DNA from: an uncultured Bacilli bacterium
Lineage (GTDB): Bacteria > Bacillota_I > Bacilli_A > RF39 > UBA660
DNA length: 64,000 bases
Assembly: GCA_934101225.1 (NCBI GenBank)
Contig: CAKOQK010000002.1
Location: forward strand, 40,633 to 104,632
Direction of reading: 5' to 3'
The translations under genes and the position numbers were made by a program. The notes under the pieces were generated by a model that was given only the letters and a program-made list of their open reading frames with translations, ran no database searches and was not told the origin of the DNA. Shown piece after piece: positions 1,116-55,711 of the stretch. The stretch's first letter is position 1; each line of letters begins with the position of its first letter.

Positions 1116-2669
1116 ATGAAAACTAATTGTCAAAAACTAAAAAATATTTTAGAGACATACACTGATATTTATATTTTTATAATCTTGTTAATATTTCCTT
1201 TTATAGTTAATAAAGATGGATTCTTTCATATTTTAGAATGTAAATGGTATTCATATTTAATTATTGGAATGACATATTTAACTCTAAACTTAGTAACGTT
1301 ATTATATTTTTATATCTTTAAAAAAGTTAATTATTTTAAAAATTATAAATTATCTAAAGTACAATTATTTGCCATTTCATTATTAATTATTAATATTATA
1401 TCTTGCTTATTATCTCCTTATCTAAAAGATTATAATTTACTTATAGGAGTTGGTAGAGGAGAAGGATTAATAATTACTTCCCTTTATATTCTTTCTTTTT
1501 TAAGCATAGCTTTATTTGGCAAATTTAAAAGAAAATATATTTTATATTTTTCGCTTTTATCAATAATTCATAATGGAATATGTGTGCTTCAATATATTGG
1601 CTTTAATCCATTAAATATGTATCAAAATGGGATTGGAACCCATAATGTAAGTTTTATGGGAACAATAGGTAATATTGATTTTATATCAGCACTTTATTGC
1701 ATCTTAATACCAGTATCTATTTCATCATATCTTTTTCTTAAAGATAATAGTAAAAAAGAAAATATTATTCATTTAACATCAATATTTTTATCATTCTTTA
1801 TTTTAGGTATTATAAATGTTCAAAGTGGTAAACTAGCCTTATTAATAATGCTTATGTTAACTTTTCCTTTAATTATCAAAAATAACCAAAGATTAAGTAA
1901 ATTTCTTATCATATTATCATTAATATTGATGGCATACTGCACCAATATCATATTAAATCCCGAGTATCATTACGACATTAATAAACTAGGACTTTATTTT
2001 AAATTTAATTATATTGTTATATTGTATTTAATTGTTATTTTTATATTAATTTATTTATCAAAAGTTTTAAAAAATACTAACTACAATATTTTAAATGATA
2101 AAAAGTTAATTAAATATTATTTTATTGGAATATCTATTTGTGGAATATTTGGAATAATTATTATATATAATATAAATTTTAGTAGTGGGTTTTTATATGA
2201 AATTCATGAATTATTACATTTAAATTTTGATGAAGAATTTGGAACATATAGAATATTCTTATGGAAAAGAACTTTAAAGTTAGTAAAAGATTATCCTTTA
2301 ATAGGAACAGGGCCAGATACCTTTGCATTAAGGTTTATGGCAAAGTATACTGAAGATATTAAAGCAATTGGCCCTTTAACAATTAATGATACAGCAGCCA
2401 ATGTTTATTTAACAACTTTAATAAATTTAGGAGTAATTGGTCTTTCTAATTATTTATTATTAATGTTTTCATTATTAAAAAAAGGATTAAAAGAAATGAA
2501 TAATTATTCTAAAATATTGTTACTTGCTTTTATTTGTTATCTAATTCAAGATTTTTTTAATCTTTCAGTTGTAATAGTAAGTCCAATATTTTGGCTATTA
2601 ATAGGAGTTTTATACATAAGTTTAAATGCTGACAAATTAACTTGTAAAAAAGGAATAAAAACAATATAA
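1116..2669 (+). CDS. O-antigen ligase / Wzy_C family polytopic membrane protein
   Basis: Many hydrophobic segments. The motif GTYRIFLWKRTLKLVKDYPLIGTGPDTF resembles the conserved loop of the WaaL/PglL/WsaB-type family. Confidence 0.65.
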   Translation: MKTNCQKLKNILETYTDIYIFIILLIFPFIVNKDGFFHILECKWYSYLIIGMTYLTLNLVTLLYFYIFKKVNYFKNYKLSKVQLFAISLLIINIISCLLSPYLKDYNLLIGVGRGEGLIITSLYILSFLSIALFGKFKRKYILYFSLLSIIHNGICVLQYIGFNPLNMYQNGIGTHNVSFMGTIGNIDFISALYCILIPVSISSYLFLKDNSKKENIIHLTSIFLSFFILGIINVQSGKLALLIMLMLTFPLIIKNNQRLSKFLIILSLILMAYCTNIILNPEYHYDINKLGLYFKFNYIVILYLIVIFILIYLSKVLKNTNYNILNDKKLIKYYFIGISICGIFGIIIIYNINFSSGFLYEIHELLHLNFDEEFGTYRIFLWKRTLKLVKDYPLIGTGPDTFALRFMAKYTEDIKAIGPLTINDTAANVYLTTLINLGVIGLSNYLLLMFSLLKKGLKEMNNYSKILLLAFICYLIQDFFNLSVVIVSPIFWLLIGVLYISLNADKLTCKKGIKTI

Positions 2670-2697
2670 TTAAATTGTAAAGTAGAGGAGTTTGAAA

Positions 2698-4323
2698 ATG
2701 AAAAAAGATAAAATATTAGAATTAGTTATAGGTGGAATTATTATATTCTCTGTAGGGATATTTATAGGTTATAAATTAAATAGTGGTGCAATAAAAAATA
2801 TTCAAGGCTATCTATTTAATGCTAGCGGATTTGCAACTGATCCAAATGCGACTGATTGTAACGCAACAGATAGTAATGCGACTGACAGTAATGCGACTGA
2901 TAGCAACGCTACTGATTCCAACGCAACAGATAGTAATGCCACTGATTCCAATGCAACTGACAGTAATGCTACAAGTTCAAATGCATCTATAAATGATAAT
3001 ATTTTAATTTTATCTAGTTTTTATTTAAAAACAACTACTGGTAAAACTGGTGAAAAAATATATGTTAATTTACAAACTCAAGGAACAACTAATACTGGTG
3101 CATCTGTATCTTTTAAAAGTACAAAGGGATACACCTTTACAACAAGTATTTATTCAATAAATAATAATCCTTACATTATAATTCCTAACAATATTCTTCC
3201 TGATACTTATAATGTAACAGATTTATTATTAACTGGTTTAAATAGTGATTATACAACATTTACTAAACATTATGGTCAAAATGGTAATTTTAACTATACA
3301 TTCAGTTCAAAATTAATTATCAGTTCTGAAAATAAAACCAATATAAAATTAAATAGCTTCACTTTAAAAACTAATAAAGCCAATATATCAGATAAAGTAT
3401 ATTTCGATATTCAAACAAGTGAAAAACTAACTAATTTAAAATTAGAATTAAAAGGAAGTAACAATACATTTACTGTCTATGCTGCTTCTTTAAATAATAA
3501 TCCATATTTTGAAATTCCTTCTAATAGTACTGAAGGAAAATATATACTAACTTCATTAACTTTAATAAACAATGATAACACCGTAATATATACAAATAAT
3601 GGAAATAATGGAACATTAAAATATGTATTTAATTCTTATTTAGAAATAACTAATAATAGTAATAAAAAACATGTTTATAATAATGAAGATATTGATACAA
3701 CTGTTATATCTAAGTTATATGAAAGTGATAAAAATTCTGAAATAGCTATAAATGCTAATGAAAATAGTTTTATAAGTAGTGAGTTATTTAACATTATAAA
3801 AGGAACTAATAGAACTCTTAAAATAAATAATAATGATAATGAATTAATTTTTAAAGGAAATGATATTAAAGAAGCTAAAACAATTGATGTTAATACTAAA
3901 GTTTATTTAACTGAAGTTAACAATAACATTAATGAAATAGTAAAAAAGGGAATTATAATAGATTTTCCTGATAATGGTTCATTACCTGGAAATGCTTTAG
4001 TTAAGATTAAAAATAATGATGATATTAAAAAGGTTTTAGATAGTAAAGTAAACGTTTATTATTATAATGATAAAACTAATAAATTTAGATTAATAAGTAG
4101 AGGAATAACTTTAACTGAAGATTATTATGAATTTAATATTTCACATACATCTAGTTATGTTTTAACTAATGAAGAAATAGATAAAAAATATTTAGAAACA
4201 AATGAAAATGTAGTAAATTTCCAAAAAAGTAATAAAGTAAATTTACTTCTAATTGGAGCAGGAGTTTTAGTTATAATTGGAACAACTTGTCTAATAATTT
4301 TTATTAAAAGAAAAAATAAATAA
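2698..4323 (+). CDS. Membrane-anchored surface protein with an ATDSN pentapeptide repeat stalk, two internally duplicated ~110-aa domains and a C-terminal TM anchor
   Basis: ATG at 2698 follows GGAGG at 2684-2690; the track starts at TTG 2692. N-terminal hydrophobic segment. Paired domains FYLKTTTGKTGEKIYVNLQT... and FTLKTNKANISDKVYFDIQT.... C-terminal LLLIGAGVLVIIGTTCLIIFIKRKNK. Confidence 0.7.
   Translation: MKKDKILELVIGGIIIFSVGIFIGYKLNSGAIKNIQGYLFNASGFATDPNATDCNATDSNATDSNATDSNATDSNATDSNATDSNATDSNATSSNASINDNILILSSFYLKTTTGKTGEKIYVNLQTQGTTNTGASVSFKSTKGYTFTTSIYSINNNPYIIIPNNILPDTYNVTDLLLTGLNSDYTTFTKHYGQNGNFNYTFSSKLIISSENKTNIKLNSFTLKTNKANISDKVYFDIQTSEKLTNLKLELKGSNNTFTVYAASLNNNPYFEIPSNSTEGKYILTSLTLINNDNTVIYTNNGNNGTLKYVFNSYLEITNNSNKKHVYNNEDIDTTVISKLYESDKNSEIAINANENSFISSELFNIIKGTNRTLKINNNDNELIFKGNDIKEAKTIDVNTKVYLTEVNNNINEIVKKGIIIDFPDNGSLPGNALVKIKNNDDIKKVLDSKVNVYYYNDKTNKFRLISRGITLTEDYYEFNISHTSSYVLTNEEIDKKYLETNENVVNFQKSNKVNLLLIGAGVLVIIGTTCLIIFIKRKNK
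2833..2988 (+). repeat. About ten tandem 15-bp units encoding (A-T-D-S-N)n
   Basis: The units read directly as gcaactgatccaaat / gcgactgattgtaac / gcaacagatagtaat / gcgactgacagtaat / gcgactgatagcaac / gctactgattccaac / gcaacagatagtaat / gccactgattccaat / gcaactgacagtaat / gctacaagttcaaat. Confidence 0.9.
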
Positions 4324-4339
4324 GAACTGTTAAAATAAA

Positions 4340-4939
4340 CTAACAGTTCTTTTCACATATTGAAATAACATAGTTATCATATATAAAAGAATAACATTTA
4401 ACATTTATATCACTACAATAAATATGATTGTTACTAATTGTAAATTCAACATTTTTAATATCAAATATACTTTTTCCCATCATTTTAATATAAGCTTCTT
4501 TTAAAGTATAAATTTCAAATAATCGTTTAAATAGATTATTATCTTCTAATAAAATATATTCTTTTTCTTTATTACTAGCAAAATAATTAATAGATTTAAT
4601 ATTAGTTTCTCTAATTTTTTCAATATCAATACCTATTTCTTTATCAGAAACAACAGTTATAACATAATTAGAAGAATGACTTATATTATAGAATATATTT
4701 TTGCTAACAATAAAAGGTTTATTATTTTTATTAAATTTGAATTCTAAGTTATTATAGTTAAGATTATAATATTTATTTAATAAGTTACTTAAAAGAATTT
4801 CCCCAATAATTGATTGTTTTACTTTAAGTTCATTCTTAAAATTATTAATTCTTTTTTTCTTTTCAATATAAATATTATTATAAAAATTATTAATCTCATT
4901 ATCACTATAATCATTAATATTTTTAATTATATACTTCAT
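4340..4939 (-). CDS. 4'-phosphopantetheinyl transferase, Sfp type
   Basis: GIDIEKI and LKEAYIK(M)G motifs, about 200 aa, divergent from a carrier-protein operon. Confidence 0.7.
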   Translation of the reverse strand: MKYIIKNINDYSDNEINNFYNNIYIEKKKRINNFKNELKVKQSIIGEILLSNLLNKYYNLNYNNLEFKFNKNNKPFIVSKNIFYNISHSSNYVITVVSDKEIGIDIEKIRETNIKSINYFASNKEKEYILLEDNNLFKRLFEIYTLKEAYIKMMGKSIFDIKNVEFTISNNHIYCSDINVKCYSFIYDNYVISICEKNC

Positions 4940-5020
4940 AAATATTCACCATAATCACCTATATAATATCATTTTTAATATTAATTTGTTATAATTAATT
5001 TGAAATTTGAGTAGGAGTAT

Positions 5021-5854
5021 ATGATTATGACTAGAAAATTATTTTGCGATATAAGTCCAACATGCTATAAAATATCAGTTCAAAAAGAAATTTTATTAAG
5101 AAAAACAAAAGATTTATTAAGTAAAGAAAAGATAGCAAAAACAAAAAATAAAGAACCATTACCCAATATTGTTAAAAGTCATACTTCGATATTGATAAGA
5201 AAATTACATGGAGTAGATATTAAACTTCAAGAAAATAAAGTAACAAATATTAGCCTAGCATGTAATCAAATAAATGGAATAATTATTCATCCAGGAGAAA
5301 CTTTTTCATATTGGCAAATGGTGGGAAAACCAACTAAAGAAAAAGGATATAAAGAAGGATTAGTTATTGGAAGAGATGGGTTTTATGCTGGTACTGGTGG
5401 CGGATTATGTCAAATGGCTAACATGATTCATTATTTAGTTTTAAATAGTCCTTTAGAGGTAACTGAACTTCATCATCATTCAGATGCTTTATTTCCTGAT
5501 GACCGAAGAAGAGTACCTTTTGGTACCGGAACCAGTGTTTGTTATAATAATTTAGACTATCGTTTTAAAAATAATACTGATCAAGATATTCAAATTCTTG
5601 TATGGATAGATGGTGGCGAACTTTGCGGTGAACTTAGAAGTAAAAAGGCATTCCCTTGTCGATATAAATTAGTTGAAGAAGATCATCATTTTAAAAAAGA
5701 AAAAAATAAATATTTTAGAATATCAAAAGTTTATCGTATTGTAATTGATAGATTAACAAATGAAGAGTTATATAAAGAATTAATTTTAGATAATCATTCA
5801 GAAGTAATGTATGATTATGATTTAATTCCTAAAGATGAAATAAGAAGTGAATAA
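5021..5854 (+). CDS. VanW-domain protein (no signal peptide or TM evident)
   Basis: Core motif GTGGGLCQMANMIHY and a surrounding pattern typical of the VanW family. Confidence 0.65.
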   Translation: MIMTRKLFCDISPTCYKISVQKEILLRKTKDLLSKEKIAKTKNKEPLPNIVKSHTSILIRKLHGVDIKLQENKVTNISLACNQINGIIIHPGETFSYWQMVGKPTKEKGYKEGLVIGRDGFYAGTGGGLCQMANMIHYLVLNSPLEVTELHHHSDALFPDDRRRVPFGTGTSVCYNNLDYRFKNNTDQDIQILVWIDGGELCGELRSKKAFPCRYKLVEEDHHFKKEKNKYFRISKVYRIVIDRLTNEELYKELILDNHSEVMYDYDLIPKDEIRSE

Positions 5855-5856
5855 AT

Positions 5857-7257
5857 GTGATAATAGATAAAATTAAAGAAATAGTAAAGTTGTATCCTGA
5901 TAGAGTAGCTTATACTGTTGATAATGAAAGTATAACTTATGAAAATTTATGGAATAACGCTACTAAATATTCAAAATTCTTAAAAAATGAAGAAACATCT
6001 CCAATTATTATTTATGGTAACAAAGAAATTAATATGATCATTTCAATTTTATCTTGTTTACTTGCTAAAAGAGCTTATATTCCTATTGGAACATGCATGC
6101 CAACATCAAGAATAAATTCTATTATAAAAATGACTAATGCAAGTTTAATTTTAACTGATTATGAAATTAACATTCCTAATATTAAGATATCAAAAATAAC
6201 AGATTTAAGTAGTGCTCCTATTAAAGAAGAAGATAATTTAAATAATACTTCTTATATTATTTTTACATCAGGAAGTACCGGAGAGCCAAAAGGAGTTCCA
6301 ATATCCTATAATAATTTAGATAATTTTGTTAATTGGATTAGTAATATTTATCCATTATCCGATTATCATAATATAAATGTATTAAATACTGCTAGTTTTA
6401 GTTTTGATTTAAGTGTTGCTGACTTATATTATTCATTATGTAATGGTCATACGTTATTTGCTACTAATAATAATTGCTCATGTAGCTACTTTAATATTTT
6501 TGATACTTTAAAAGATATAAACCTAATTGTTTGCACTCCAACATATATCAAATTATGTTTATTAGATTCTAGCTTTAATAGTCAAAATTATCCTAATTTA
6601 AAATGTATTTATTTTTGTGGAGAACAATTAGAAATTAATTTAGTTAAAAAATTATATTCATTATTTCCAAATATCGATATTATTAATGCTTATGGACCAA
6701 CCGAAGCAACATCAGCAGTATCAGCCATAAGAGTTGTTAGAGAAATGGTAAATGAAGATATTTTGCCAGTTGGTGATATAATTAATTTAGCTGTAAATAT
6801 CGAAATAATAAATAATGAAATAGTGTTAAAAGGTAAAAGTGTATTTGATGGTTATTTAAATATTACCACTGATAATGTTTATAAAGAAAATGGAATAAAT
6901 TGTTATAAAACAGGCGATTTAGGTTACATAAGAAATAATATGTTATATATTACCGGAAGAAAAGATAATCAAATAAAGTATAAAGGATATCGTATTGAAC
7001 TTCATGATATTGAAAATAATATTTTACAAATAAAAGACGTAATAGATTGTGCTGTAATTGCTAAATATGATGAAAATAATATTGTTAAAACTCTAAAAGC
7101 ATTTGTAGTAAGTAAAAATAAAGATTCAAATTATATAAAAGAAAAATTAAAAACAATGTTACCTAATTATATGATACCTAAAAGTATTGTTATTTTAGAT
7201 AAATTACCAGTTAATTTAAATGGTAAAATAGATAGAAAGGCTTTAAGTAAATTATGA
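5857..7257 (+). CDS. Stand-alone adenylation enzyme, DltA-like (D-alanine--carrier protein ligase family)
   Basis: GTG start. AMP-binding motifs IFTSGSTGEPKGV, AYGPTEAT, YKTGDLG and NGKIDRKAL. Collinear with my recollection of B. subtilis DltA (FSFDLSV, CTPT/STPS). Confidence 0.8.
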   Translation: MIIDKIKEIVKLYPDRVAYTVDNESITYENLWNNATKYSKFLKNEETSPIIIYGNKEINMIISILSCLLAKRAYIPIGTCMPTSRINSIIKMTNASLILTDYEINIPNIKISKITDLSSAPIKEEDNLNNTSYIIFTSGSTGEPKGVPISYNNLDNFVNWISNIYPLSDYHNINVLNTASFSFDLSVADLYYSLCNGHTLFATNNNCSCSYFNIFDTLKDINLIVCTPTYIKLCLLDSSFNSQNYPNLKCIYFCGEQLEINLVKKLYSLFPNIDIINAYGPTEATSAVSAIRVVREMVNEDILPVGDIINLAVNIEIINNEIVLKGKSVFDGYLNITTDNVYKENGINCYKTGDLGYIRNNMLYITGRKDNQIKYKGYRIELHDIENNILQIKDVIDCAVIAKYDENNIVKTLKAFVVSKNKDSNYIKEKLKTMLPNYMIPKSIVILDKLPVNLNGKIDRKALSKL

Positions 7258-7499
7258 AAAATAAAATAGATTTATATAAAATACTATATGAAATATGTGA
7301 AGATAAATTAGTTTATGAAAAAGATATTAATTTAATTGAAAGTGGTTTACTAGATTCATATGCTTTTATTTTATTATTTTCTACCTTAGAAGATTATGGT
7401 GTTTTTTTAGAGCCTACTAGAATAGATAGATCCAAATTAGCAACAGTTTCAGGAATTCAAGAATTAATAGATGATTACCTAAATAAAAATATATCCTAA
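7254..7499 (+). CDS. Small acyl/peptidyl carrier protein, DltC-like
   Basis: 81 aa with the LLDS motif (phosphopantetheine Ser). ATGA start/stop overlap with the upstream adenylation gene. Confidence 0.7.
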   Translation: MKNKIDLYKILYEICEDKLVYEKDINLIESGLLDSYAFILLFSTLEDYGVFLEPTRIDRSKLATVSGIQELIDDYLNKNIS

Positions 7500-7500
7500 A

Positions 7501-8217
7501 TTAAGATATATTTTTTTTAATGCTAGATAATTTTTTAATTTTAATATAAGTAATATAATAAGTAACAAGATTATAAAAGATAAAGAACATAAATATAAAA
7601 TCATTCTTACTTACCAATAATAAATCATAAACTAAGTGAAAATATACTGGAATAACTAAACTTAATACTTTATATTTTTTGGCTCTTTTTATATCATTAT
7701 TTATTAAATAATATTTTGCAAGTCCAAGATAATATCCCATATTAGCACTATAAACAATATGACTAGGTACTGATATTAAACTTCTAACAATCATCGTTCT
7801 TATTTCATAATTATTAAATGAATGAACATATATAATATTTTCCAAGAATGCAAATCCCATTGACAAGAATACACAATAAACAATTGCATCAAATATATAA
7901 TTAAAATTTTTATTTTTCCAACTTATTAAATAAACAAATAACCATTTGATTAATTCTTCTACTAAAACAATTCCAAATAAAACTTTGATAATAATTTGAA
8001 TTAAATTTAAATCACCATAAGATAAATTTATAAAGTTAATATTACTTTTTAAAATCATAGAGATTATAACCGTTAAACAAGAAGAAATAATCCCACAAAT
8101 AAATAGAATAATTAACAAACTAAAAGGTTCTTTTTCAATCTTATCTTCTTTATAAAAATATATTAAAAAGAATAAACAAGGTAAAAAACAAATAGTTAAT
8201 AAAATAATATTATTCAT
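7501..8217 (-). CDS. prsW: PrsW-family intramembrane metalloprotease
   Basis: Polytopic. Motifs VEELIKW, FAFLENIIY and PSHIVYS match the PrsW signature pattern. Confidence 0.65.
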   Translation of the reverse strand: MNNIILLTICFLPCLFFLIYFYKEDKIEKEPFSLLIILFICGIISSCLTVIISMILKSNINFINLSYGDLNLIQIIIKVLFGIVLVEELIKWLFVYLISWKNKNFNYIFDAIVYCVFLSMGFAFLENIIYVHSFNNYEIRTMIVRSLISVPSHIVYSANMGYYLGLAKYYLINNDIKRAKKYKVLSLVIPVYFHLVYDLLLVSKNDFIFMFFIFYNLVTYYITYIKIKKLSSIKKNIS

Positions 8218-53794: not shown

Positions 53795-55711
53795 GTGATT
53801 TTAATGCTTCATTATCGTATTCATAAAAGAATGTATTACGTGTATTTTACTGTCTTAATAACTTTTTTAGTAATAATTTTAAGAGTATTTTATCTTCAAG
53901 TATTTAAAGTAAATAATATAAAAGATAAGGCCAATAGTCTATGGAGTCGTAATTTACCAATTCTTGCTGATAGAGGTAAAATAACTGATCGTAATGGCAT
54001 AGTTCTTGCTGATAATTTAACAACAACATCTCTAGTAGTAATACCAGTTCAAATTCAAAATAAAGAAGAGGTTGCTAAAAACTTATCTGAAATACTAGGA
54101 ACAACATATTTAAATATTTATTCCCATTTAACCAAACATACCTCAATTGAAAGAATTCATCCTGAAGGAAGAAGATTATCATATGATATTGCAGAAAAAA
54201 TAAATAATTTAAATTATGATGGAGTTTATTTACTTAAAGAATCTAAAAGATATTATCCATATGAATCATTACTTTCCCATGTTTTAGGATATGTTGGTAT
54301 AGATAATCAAGGTTTATCTGGAATTGAACTTGAATACGATAAGTATTTAAAAGGTAATGACGGAGGTATATTATATTATTCTGATGGTAAAGGAAATCGT
54401 TTAAATTTATCTGAAGTTTATGATGAACCTGTTAATGGCAATAATATTTCTTTAACGATAGATATAAATATTCAAGAAGCTGTTGAAAAAGAATTAGATA
54501 ATGTAGTTACAAAATATAATCCAGATAGTACTTTAGCCTTAGTTATGGATCCAAATAGTGGAGAAGTTCTTGCTATGTCATCTCGTCCAAACTTTGATTC
54601 TAATAATTATAAAAATTATGACTTAGAGACTATCAACCGAAATTTACCAATATGGATGACTTATGAACCCGGTTCGACTTTCAAAATTATAACTCTATCT
54701 AGTGCTATAAATGAAGGAAAAGTAAACTTATTTGATGATCATTATTATGATGGTGGATCAATTCAAGTTGAAAATGCCCGAATTAAATGTTGGAAAAGAG
54801 GAGGTCATGGTTCTGAAACCTTTTTAAACGTCGTAGAAAACTCTTGCAACCCCGGTTTTGTCGTACTAGGTCAAAGATTAGGTACTGAAACTTTATATTC
54901 ATACTTAGAAAAATTTGGTTTTGGTAAAAAGACCGGAATTGATTTAAATGGTGAAGCCAGCGGTATCATGTTTAAATTATCTAAAATGGGACCAGTTGAA
55001 ACTGCAACAACCGCTTTTGGTCAAGGTATAAGTGTAACACCTATTCAACAAGTAACGGGAGTATCAGCCGCTATTAATGGTGGAACATTATATAAACCTT
55101 ACATAGTTAAATCAATAAGTGAACCTGAAACAAATAATGTAATTGTTCTTAATAAAAAACAAGTAGTTAGAGAAAATATCGTAACAGAAGAAACTAGTAA
55201 CTTAGTCAGATTTGCCCTTGAAAGTGTAGTTCAAAATGGTACTGGTAAAAATGCCTATATTGAAAATTACCGAGTAGGTGGTAAAACCGGAACAGCCCAA
55301 AAAGTTAAAGATGGTAAATATATGGTTGGTAATTATATTGTTTCATTTATTGGTTTCTTACCAGCTGATAATCCTAAATATGTAGTCTATGTTGCAGTAG
55401 ATAATCCAAAAGGTATCACTCAGTATGGTGGGACAGTTGCCGCACCTATTGCTAAAAATATTATGCTAAGTATTATAGATAGCCAAAATATACCAAAAGT
55501 AGAAACAGATAGAGCTAGAGAATATACATGGCTAGATACTAAATATATTAAATTACCAGATGTTACAGGAAATGATTTAGATACTGCTAAAAAATCTTTA
55601 AAAGGATTTAAAATAGAATACTCAGGAAGTGGTGAAAAAGTAATATCTCAAATGCCAGAAGGAAATACTTTTGTAAAAGAAAATAGCATCGTTAAAATAT
55701 TATTAGATTAA
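53795..55711 (+). CDS. Class B penicillin-binding protein (FtsI/PBP2B/SpoVD family) with a single C-terminal PASTA domain
   Basis: STFK (SxxK), SCN (SxN) and KTGT motifs. The PASTA segment is KLPDVTGNDLDTAKKSLK.... The start may be ATG at 53804. Confidence 0.85.
   Translation: MILMLHYRIHKRMYYVYFTVLITFLVIILRVFYLQVFKVNNIKDKANSLWSRNLPILADRGKITDRNGIVLADNLTTTSLVVIPVQIQNKEEVAKNLSEILGTTYLNIYSHLTKHTSIERIHPEGRRLSYDIAEKINNLNYDGVYLLKESKRYYPYESLLSHVLGYVGIDNQGLSGIELEYDKYLKGNDGGILYYSDGKGNRLNLSEVYDEPVNGNNISLTIDINIQEAVEKELDNVVTKYNPDSTLALVMDPNSGEVLAMSSRPNFDSNNYKNYDLETINRNLPIWMTYEPGSTFKIITLSSAINEGKVNLFDDHYYDGGSIQVENARIKCWKRGGHGSETFLNVVENSCNPGFVVLGQRLGTETLYSYLEKFGFGKKTGIDLNGEASGIMFKLSKMGPVETATTAFGQGISVTPIQQVTGVSAAINGGTLYKPYIVKSISEPETNNVIVLNKKQVVRENIVTEETSNLVRFALESVVQNGTGKNAYIENYRVGGKTGTAQKVKDGKYMVGNYIVSFIGFLPADNPKYVVYVAVDNPKGITQYGGTVAAPIAKNIMLSIIDSQNIPKVETDRAREYTWLDTKYIKLPDVTGNDLDTAKKSLKGFKIEYSGSGEKVISQMPEGNTFVKENSIVKILLD

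Follow-up and report, generated by a model that had tools for sequence, protein, structure and literature searches.

To our knowledge, carrier-protein-dependent aminoacylation of the Gram-positive cell envelope is known only through DltB and DltD, i.e., through the Dlt pathway (DltA-DltC-DltB-DltD and DltX) that D-alanylates teichoic acids. The AlmEFG system of Vibrio cholerae modifies lipid A with glycine (PMC4278540). According to Bollinger et al. (PNAS 2024, PMC11348318), VanW domains constitute a second L,D-transpeptidase (LDT) family with conserved Cys, His and Asp residues, in which the Cys is essential and the reaction proceeds via a thioacyl intermediate, and the characterized VanW LDTs are membrane-anchored and extracellular. 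A 2025 review states that LDT activity is lacking in some VanW proteins, whose roles are unknown, and that the short, signal-less ones are uncharacterized (PMC12729407). Here we analyzed a locus in which a protein of this short kind is encoded together with Dlt-like genes. It lies at positions 4340-7499 of a 64,000-nucleotide stretch of an uncultured Bacilli bacterium (contig CAKOQK010000002.1, positions 40,633 to 104,632; hereafter, the window) and comprises genes for a VanW-family protein, a DltA-like stand-alone adenylation enzyme (A-enzyme) and a DltC-fold aminoacyl carrier (T), next to a divergent gene for an Sfp-type 4'-phosphopantetheinyl transferase (PPTase).

The locus is a distinct, self-contained cassette that is widespread in gut Firmicutes, and not a broken D-alanylation operon; the frame of an "orphan Dlt pair", in which a preliminary description made from the sequence had placed it, was wrong. 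The pocket of the A-enzyme is systematically unlike that of DltA. We tentatively propose, with a probability of roughly 45%, that A-enzyme, carrier and VanW together carry out an MBOAT-independent aminoacylation of an envelope precursor. The locus would be one copy of a three-gene cassette that is self-contained and horizontally mobile, equipped here with its own Sfp-type PPTase, which would turn the apo-carrier into its holo form at Ser35. The A-enzyme would then adenylate a small neutral, D-Ala-like amino acid and load it onto the carrier as a thioester, Cys130/His153 of the cytoplasmic VanW would take over the aminoacyl group by transthioesterification, and VanW would hand it to an amine of an envelope precursor at the cytoplasmic face, most likely the stem peptide of peptidoglycan as carried by UDP-MurNAc or lipid II; DltB and DltD would not be required. 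Of these steps, we infer the direction of transfer, the role of VanW as the transferase and the acceptor. Demonstrated are the genes present at the locus, their preservation as a unit, the identity of domains and folds, the retention of the catalytic residues and the reliance of the PPTase on the cassette.

Conservation of the cassette and of its phosphopantetheinyl transferase

Loci were gathered by an A-enzyme search with one genome per species, which resulted in 44 loci from gut and rumen metagenome-assembled genomes (MAGs) labelled as Bacilli, "Tenericutes", Oscillospiraceae, Acutalibacteraceae, Lachnospiraceae, and Clostridia. The genes for VanW, the A-enzyme and the carrier were found in the same order and on the same strand in 43 of them, usually overlapping or abutting, at A-enzyme identities down to 37%, an arrangement that is far beyond chance; the association with VanW pointed out in the preliminary description is thus kept in relatives. 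In the 44th locus (L027, 367-2622) the VanW frame continues into the A gene owing to a frameshift, and all three reading frames are still there. This apparent VanW-DltA fusion was considered as a Rosetta-stone link and rejected as a frameshift or read-through, since the VanW C-terminus is garbled there. From locus to locus, the three proteins change in concert (r = 0.86-0.88 between their pairwise identities), with VanW being the most constrained (54-82% identity to the window protein where the A-enzyme has 38-64%). Ratios of nonsynonymous to synonymous substitution rates (dN/dS) against near relatives were 0-0.12 for VanW, 0 for the carrier, 0.15-0.31 for the A-enzyme, and 0.26-0.71, on small counts, for the PPTase, so that all cassette genes are under purifying selection. 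The 114 flanking genes that were tallied fell into 139 different Pfam families, of which only PPTase (10 loci), PrsW (5) and Wzy_C (3) were recurrent, all of them within a small-genome Bacilli clade; apart from these, the tally of the flanks gave no extra conserved partner genes, and no recurrent tailoring, export or acyltransferase genes. A literature search retrieved nothing relevant that links VanW with DltA, an adenylation enzyme or a carrier protein.

These data bear on the possibility, also raised in the preliminary description, that a dltABCD operon, or a duplicate of one, is decaying here and has no function of its own. Such decay might be seen in the frameshifts of the A gene in four related MAGs, together with that of VanW into the A gene in L027. 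Three species-level MAGs have a common 1-nt frameshift just past the LPV codons (L039:~8925, L041:~8925, L042:~3800) and a fourth has a different one (L037:~9045), while VanW and the carrier are intact in all four; these frameshifts and that of L027 may be true decay in one clade or assembly errors. Stop-codon recoding in the split A genes was also considered and rejected, as the disruptions are 1-nt frameshifts and no in-frame stops were found. On the other hand, the genome holds no other DltA, DltC or dltABCD operon and no DltD, dN/dS is well under 1 for all genes, the trio is kept in 43 of the 44 loci over two classes with the 44th explained by a frameshift, and the A-enzyme has a pocket code that is both conserved and distinct from DltA. 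Conservation and selection data effectively refute the remnant, and we give it hardly any weight.

The host genome (1.34 Mb, 93% complete) also accounts for the PPTase. This is a two-domain, Sfp-type protein (PF22624 at residues 14-96, PF01648 at residues 102-195) that scores below all NCBIfam equivalog cutoffs, and it represents the single PF01648 match in the whole genome. No PF00550 carrier was matched in the genome, which has neither an acyl carrier protein nor an AcpS-type PPTase, and the lineage has apparently lost type II fatty-acid synthesis. The PPTase is thus not an additional enzyme beside AcpS, as had been supposed; the presence of a dedicated Sfp-type enzyme is explained by the apparent loss of fatty-acid synthesis in the lineage. 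Among 24 genomes of the genus, the PPTase gene lies directly beside VanW in all 10 that carry the cassette, and any PPTase is present in only 5 of the 14 without it (Fisher p = 0.002). Four of these five PPTase genes adjoin a different A-T system or the end of a contig. Those of G016 and G023 are each the last gene of an A(497)-T(75)-MBOAT(497)-343aa-PPTase operon, that of G014 comes after an A(577)-T(84) pair, and that of G001 is located where a contig ends; the fifth, of AcpS size, comes from a bin with 7% contamination (G017). In most sister genera of the family a PPTase is missing altogether, and the cassettes of Clostridia come without one. In this lineage the PPTase persists only together with its carrier client.

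Adenylation enzyme, carrier and VanW protein

The best NCBIfam matches of the A-enzyme are DltA models, albeit below cutoff (416 vs. 476 bits for PRK04813 and 404 vs. 560 bits for TIGR01734), and for this reason annotation pipelines may label the enzyme as DltA and thereby imply teichoic-acid D-alanylation, which is unsafe for the cassette. The closest solved structures are those of DltA (3FCC/3DHV, 182 bits over the core), the nearest solved proteins being the DltA of Bacillus cereus, Bacillus subtilis, Staphylococcus aureus, and Streptococcus pyogenes, with AlmE (4OXI) and the adenylation domains of non-ribosomal peptide synthetases (NRPS) further off. When the ten specificity positions were mapped via the 3DHV alignment, a check already proposed in the preliminary description, the code DLAVYCASAK was obtained in 31 of 40 orthologues, unlike the DltA codes DLMTLCTVAK (B. 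cereus), DLMTMCTVAK (B. subtilis), DLMVFCTVAK (S. aureus), and DLMTYDAVAK (S. pyogenes). The equivalents of Asp197, which binds the alpha-amino group, and of Cys269 (B. cereus numbering) are invariant in the cassette enzymes, while 39 of the 40 have Ala at the position of Met201 and 39 have Ser or Phe at that of Val301. Cys269 of DltA is said, in work by Du and colleagues from 2008, to be implicated in the selection of the D-enantiomer. Since these two exchanges occur in a pocket that keeps the Asp and the Cys, the substrate would be a small, neutral, D-Ala-like amino acid, and D-Ala itself is the likely candidate; the pocket has no basic residue that would suggest Asp or Glu.

The carrier is barely seen by sequence models, scoring 28 bits with the NCBIfam DltC model (cutoff 68) and escaping the Pfam PP-binding model altogether. 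Its AlphaFold2 (AF2) model, with a predicted local distance difference test (pLDDT) score of 92, has only DltC among its 11 best structural neighbours (TM-scores 0.73-0.78). The serine that had been noticed in an LLDS motif of the 81-aa protein is Ser35 in G-L-L-D-S, and all 35 aligned sequences, 33 of them from cassettes and two from the dlt-like operon described below, have it in the GxLDS context. The description of the locus as a load-and-carry module of A-enzyme, carrier and PPTase that does without DltB and DltD is supported.

The window VanW matches PF04294 with 139 bits and the NCBIfam vanW-gen model NF033128 with 190 bits (cutoff 365, aligned over positions 24-263 of 271). It is without a transmembrane (TM) or signal segment (maximum Kyte-Doolittle hydropathy over 19 residues, KD19, of 0.85), and PG4 or G5 domains were not found with Pfam. 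We aligned VanW proteins of three classes, namely 13 of the cassette type, three of the van type found in relatives (one of them from the bona fide vanW-vanG-vanXY-vanT operon of G040) and two that are long and extracellular (G050), and the residues C130, H153, D179, and N184 were invariant throughout. Where the two other classes have G-x-D-A-T, every cassette protein reads G-T-G-T-S, and a loop HHHSDALFPD(D/E)RRRVPF is present only in the cassette class. A remodelled loop beside the catalytic His, in a protein devoid of an export signal, is consistent with a changed donor. The AF2 model has a pLDDT of 87 and a predicted TM-score (pTM) of 0.84, with the HHHSD...RRR loop at ~65; neither a sequence match in the PDB nor a Foldseek match below E = 0.1 was obtained, which agrees with the published "novel fold". 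The statement of the preliminary description that no function has been established for the VanW domain is outdated, given the Cys-dependent LDT family reported in PMC11348318, and the short, signal-less VanW of the cassette is a candidate Cys-dependent aminoacyl transferase.

Candidates for the transfer step

The absence of DltB and DltD that had been remarked for the locus stands in part: DltD (PF04914) has no match in the whole genome and no MBOAT is encoded at the locus, but a single MBOAT of 462 aa does exist on contig C16 (L002:6833-9937, minus strand), with 170 bits on the DltB model (cutoff 375). This gene sits in a trio of a DUF4358-like, an MBOAT and a DHHW-protein gene. One could therefore imagine a split Dlt-like system, in which the A-T pair feeds a membrane transferase encoded elsewhere, be it the C16 MBOAT with its DHHW partner, another MBOAT or the Wzy_C-like protein, while VanW would be accessory or regulatory. 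Several observations fit with this. The score of the C16 MBOAT is not below that of an MBOAT in a carrier-dependent operon of G016 (146 bits), an MBOAT is present in 9 of the 10 cassette genomes of the genus and in 27 of 34 outside it, a Wzy_C-like gene is near the cassette in 15 of the 44 loci, the DUF4358-MBOAT-DHHW trio of L037 is located directly upstream of the cassette on the same strand, and in G013 a C16-type MBOAT stands in a row with an A-T-MBOAT operon. It is the adjacency in L037 and G013 that made us retain an MBOAT client of the cassette as a rival. Against it, MBOATs are not statistically coupled to the cassette within the genus (9 of 10 genomes with vs. 9 of 14 without, p = 0.34), they are missing from 7 of the 34 cassette genomes outside it, including the sister genomes G085 and G087, and they lie within 8 kb of the cassette in only one of the 44 loci. 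Moreover, MBOATs of the C16 size class (462-467 aa) occur in the congeners G002, G006, and G012, where the lack of any PPTase precludes a holo-carrier, and a split system leaves VanW, the best-conserved gene of the trio, without a role. The C16 MBOAT-DHHW pair as the missing DltB/DltD is thus unsupported by co-occurrence (p = 0.34) and contradicted by the MBOATs in PPTase-less congeners and by seven MBOAT-less cassette genomes, and we regard a split system as a whole as unlikely, though worth keeping in mind.

A different and complete dlt-like operon, with an MBOAT of its own, was encountered in congeners (G016, L052:2313-7095; G023, L053:1871-6653; also G013, L064:202-4580). It encodes an A-enzyme (497 aa), a carrier (75 aa), an MBOAT (497 aa, DltB model 146 bits), a 343-aa protein without Pfam match and an Sfp-type PPTase (177 aa), and in G013 two further MBOAT genes come after it, each paired with a partner gene. 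In these sister species without the cassette, the MBOAT of the operon fills the slot that is held here by VanW.

Of the two options left by the preliminary description, that the acceptor or transfer step is encoded elsewhere or is performed by VanW, the first (as an MBOAT) is unsupported by the phyletic tests and the cytoplasmic VanW is the most likely transferase. We favor VanW in this role, and only such a model explains why it is the invariant and best-conserved partner. Cysteine enzymes that move an acyl group from a carrier thioester to an amine do exist, the transglutaminase homologue AdmF being one of them, and structures of CcbD with a peptidyl carrier protein (PCP) domain are, by their PDB titles, among the fold neighbours of the cassette carrier. 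A relay from a phosphopantetheine (Ppant) thioester via an active-site Cys to an amine would thus have precedents in other folds (AdmF, CcbD).

VanW could also be a true cytoplasmic LDT, with a tetrapeptide precursor as the source of its acyl-enzyme, that uses the carrier-bound amino acid, or a dipeptide derived from it, as the acceptor, so that the stem terminus would be rebuilt or exchanged without MurF or Ddl. The exchange of terminal residues and carboxypeptidase activity are known LDT reactions (PMC12729407, PMC11348318), and van-operon VanW proteins adjoin a D-Ala-D-Ser ligase and VanXY (G040) or a Ddl-like ligase (G046). In G040, which belongs to the same class as the host, a complete vanG-type operon was found (L055:3253-7910; VanW 382 bits, VanG 501 bits, VanXY-G, VanT), and in G046 a short VanW is encoded directly upstream of the Ddl-like ligase (L056:4332-6183).

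The wall genes of the host are pertinent here. With Escherichia coli probes and filters off, no match to MurC, MurD, MurE, MurF, or DdlB was obtained in the host genome, nor did PF08245 match there; no Ddl scored above cutoff, and Ddl is absent from 23 of the 24 genomes of the genus. Kept are MraY, MurG, three FtsW/RodA, two FtsI-like penicillin-binding proteins (PBPs), an S11 DD-carboxypeptidase, and three VanY-like peptidases. Alanine racemase is lacking in the genus of 24 genomes as well as in the host. The genus has 0-2(3) Mur-ligase-family genes per genome, including one MurT and one MurE-like gene, vs. 5-8 in wall-building relatives, and sister species have MurT and sometimes one MurE-like ligase. 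In a dcw fragment (C38:3449-7549) an unrelated 473-aa ORF takes the murD slot, and a further example for this set of wall genes is at positions ~53795-55708 of the window. On contig C6 (L049:510-2415, minus strand) the gene of a 404-aa ATP-grasp enzyme overlaps one of the Asp/Glu-racemase family; this pair resembles the D-aspartate ligase and racemase that build D-Asp cross-bridges in enterococci.

In a genus that lacks Ddl and MurC-F and retains MraY, MurG, MurT and PBPs, salvage of stem peptides is plausible and is one possibility for the stem peptide of lipid II, which is in favor of the cytoplasmic LDT. However, only 10 of the 24 genomes of this Mur-less genus carry the cassette, which for this reason does not explain the loss of Mur ligases and Ddl, and it is also found in many Clostridia (Mur ligases and Ddl were not checked there). 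Activation by an A-domain would, furthermore, make the amino acid an acyl donor and not merely an amine nucleophile, and the motif on the donor side (DAT) is changed in the cassette VanW. Taken together, a cytoplasmic LDT appears quite improbable. A broader conjecture, against which we see similarly long odds, is that the whole class of short, signal-less VanW proteins, including those of vanB and vanG operons, would be cytoplasmic transpeptidases that re-decorate the peptide of the peptidoglycan precursor with an activated D-amino acid supplied by their gene neighbours (the D-Ala-D-X ligase in van operons, the aminoacyl-S-carrier here), and that in the Mur- and Ddl-less genus the cassette would give salvaged stem peptides back a terminus or branch fit for cross-linking, independently of MurF and Ddl.

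Finally, the cassette might make a small soluble product with VanW as the condensing enzyme, either a D-Ala-D-X dipeptide in place of the Ddl product or another aminoacyl amide. The combination of an A-domain, a carrier and a Cys-dependent condensing enzyme exists in natural-product pathways, Ddl above cutoff is lacking in the host and in 23 of the 24 genomes, and in van operons a Ddl-type ligase is encoded next to the short VanW. Nevertheless, Ddl is missing regardless of the cassette (14 genomes without and 9 with it), the genome has no MurF and thus no consumer for a free D-Ala-D-X dipeptide, and, as described above, the flanks are devoid of recurrent tailoring or export genes. Replacement of Ddl by the cassette in making D-Ala-D-Ala was accordingly rejected (Ddl is absent with or without the cassette, and MurF is absent too), and a soluble product in general is very improbable.

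Aminoacylation of an envelope precursor by VanW, the reading we prefer, has several points against it. All cassette proteins have Gly where LDT- and van-type VanW have the conserved Asp of G-x-D-A-T, and if this Asp is the triad residue, the chemistry of the cassette VanW may differ; in PMC11348318, moreover, four of seven foreign VanW proteins assayed were without LDT activity. With regard to the substrate, D-Ala is called into question by two pocket positions (239 and 330) that are unlike those of every solved DltA, and no alanine racemase was found in the genome. The peptidoglycan precursor is suggested as the acceptor by the ancestry of VanW only, and the host lacks the MurC-F ligases that would build a stem peptide. 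The frameshifts of the A gene in some lineages (one common to L039, L041, and L042, another in L037) and the placement of MBOATs in L037 and G013 weigh in the same direction.

If aminoacylation by the cassette is true, a second, MBOAT-independent route that employs a VanW-fold Cys enzyme would amount to a new pathway of cell-wall modification, and one that is present in many abundant gut and rumen Firmicutes. The loaded carrier would then be a likely co-substrate of, and a handle on, cytoplasmic VanW proteins, including the accessory VanW of glycopeptide resistance.

Layout of the locus and comparison with known systems

All open reading frames are where the preliminary description had put them (Table 1), and both the divergent orientation of the PPTase gene and the convergent one of the PrsW gene were confirmed. 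The A-enzyme starts 2 nt past the VanW stop codon, and the reported ATGA overlap of the A-enzyme stop with the carrier start was verified in the sequence. VanW has two in-frame ATGs, at 5021 and 5027, and an AGGAG at 5013-5017; the true start is probably that at 5027, because the spacing to AGGAG fits better and the homologues have 275 aa. Between the PPTase and VanW genes, a putative extended -10 element (TGTTATAAT, 4987-4995, plus strand) can be read from the sequence, and it may be taken as a promoter by inference only; a promoter consensus scan of this AT-rich intergenic region gave nothing above background.

Table 1 Features of the locus and its neighbourhood in the window
Feature	Position	Strand	Basis or remark
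Wzy_C / O-antigen-ligase-like polytopic membrane protein	1116..2669	+	PF04932
Sfp-type 4'-phosphopantetheinyl transferase, 199 aa	4340..4939	-	PF22624 AASDHPPT_N + PF01648 ACPS; divergent from VanW
Divergent intergenic region, 81 bp	4940..5020		putative extended -10 and AGGAG ribosome-binding site
Short signal-less VanW-family protein, 277 aa (275 aa if ATG 5027)	5021..5854	+	PF04294, 139 bits
DltA-like stand-alone adenylation enzyme, 466 aa, GTG start	5857..7257	+	NCBIfam DltA models, 416 and 404 bits
DltC-fold aminoacyl carrier, 81 aa, Ser35 in GLLDS	7254..7499	+	AF2 fold neighbours, invariant Ser
PrsW	7501-8217	-	convergent with the carrier gene, one base beyond it

Ahead of the PPTase gene, the Wzy_C-like gene and that of a repeat-rich (NATDS), doubly anchored surface protein occupy positions 1116-4323, and they were found in 13-14 Bacilli loci. 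The Wzy_C-like genes near the cassette occur in two different arrangements, and in L047 (9645-11210) a Wzy-like gene begins 2 nt after the carrier gene. Linkage of the Wzy_C-like protein to the cassette possibly holds in the small-genome Bacilli clade only, and the gene could encode a downstream membrane step or be there by mere synteny.

The cassette resembles the Dlt pathway in that its A-enzyme is nearest to solved DltA and keeps the equivalents of the Asp and of Cys269, its carrier has the DltC fold with a GxxDS serine, and the A and T genes are translationally coupled. It differs by the absence of DltD, by the lack of an MBOAT that is part of the operon or phyletically coupled to it, by DltA and DltC model scores below cutoff, by a cytoplasmic VanW as the constant third gene, and by priming through an Sfp-type PPTase instead of AcpS. 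With AlmEFG it shares a DltA-like enzyme, a DltC-like carrier and, as proposed here, a dedicated non-MBOAT transferase that would act on an envelope precursor at the cytoplasmic face. In contrast to AlmEFG, the third gene encodes a VanW-fold Cys enzyme and not an AlmG-type (LPLAT) lipid A acyltransferase, the hosts are Gram-positive bacteria devoid of lipid A, and the A-enzyme scores 115 bits to AlmE (PDB 4OXI) vs. 182 bits to DltA.

As regards the third component, the cassette VanW shares PF04294, the invariant D179 and two residues of the proposed triad (Cys and His) with Ldt4 and Ldt5 of Clostridioides difficile, as these are described in PMC11348318. Unlike them, it is devoid of a TM helix and of PG4 or G5 modules and is predicted from its sequence not to be exported, it carries G-T-G-T-S in place of G-x-D-A-T as well as the HHHSD...RRR loop, and it is always encoded with an A-T pair. 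The VanW proteins of vanB and vanG operons have the same signal-less, full-length architecture of ~275 aa, with 31-33% identity between the cassette protein and those of G040, G046, and G024. They are nonetheless distinct, as the cassette protein reaches 190 bits (cutoff 365) on NF033128 vs. 382 bits for the van-type VanW of G040, which is encoded beside VanG, VanXY, and VanT, and has A-T neighbours instead of a D-Ala-D-X ligase and a different active-site loop. AdmF and CcbD/LmbD are similar in the proposed chemistry (Ppant thioester to active-site Cys to amine), but they have unrelated folds and are enzymes of antibiotic biosynthesis, of which no pathway genes are present at the cassette. 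By this comparison, the cassette would represent a carrier-dependent envelope aminoacylation with a new transferase, in which the loading half is that of Dlt, the logic is that of AlmEFG and the third part comes from the VanW family.

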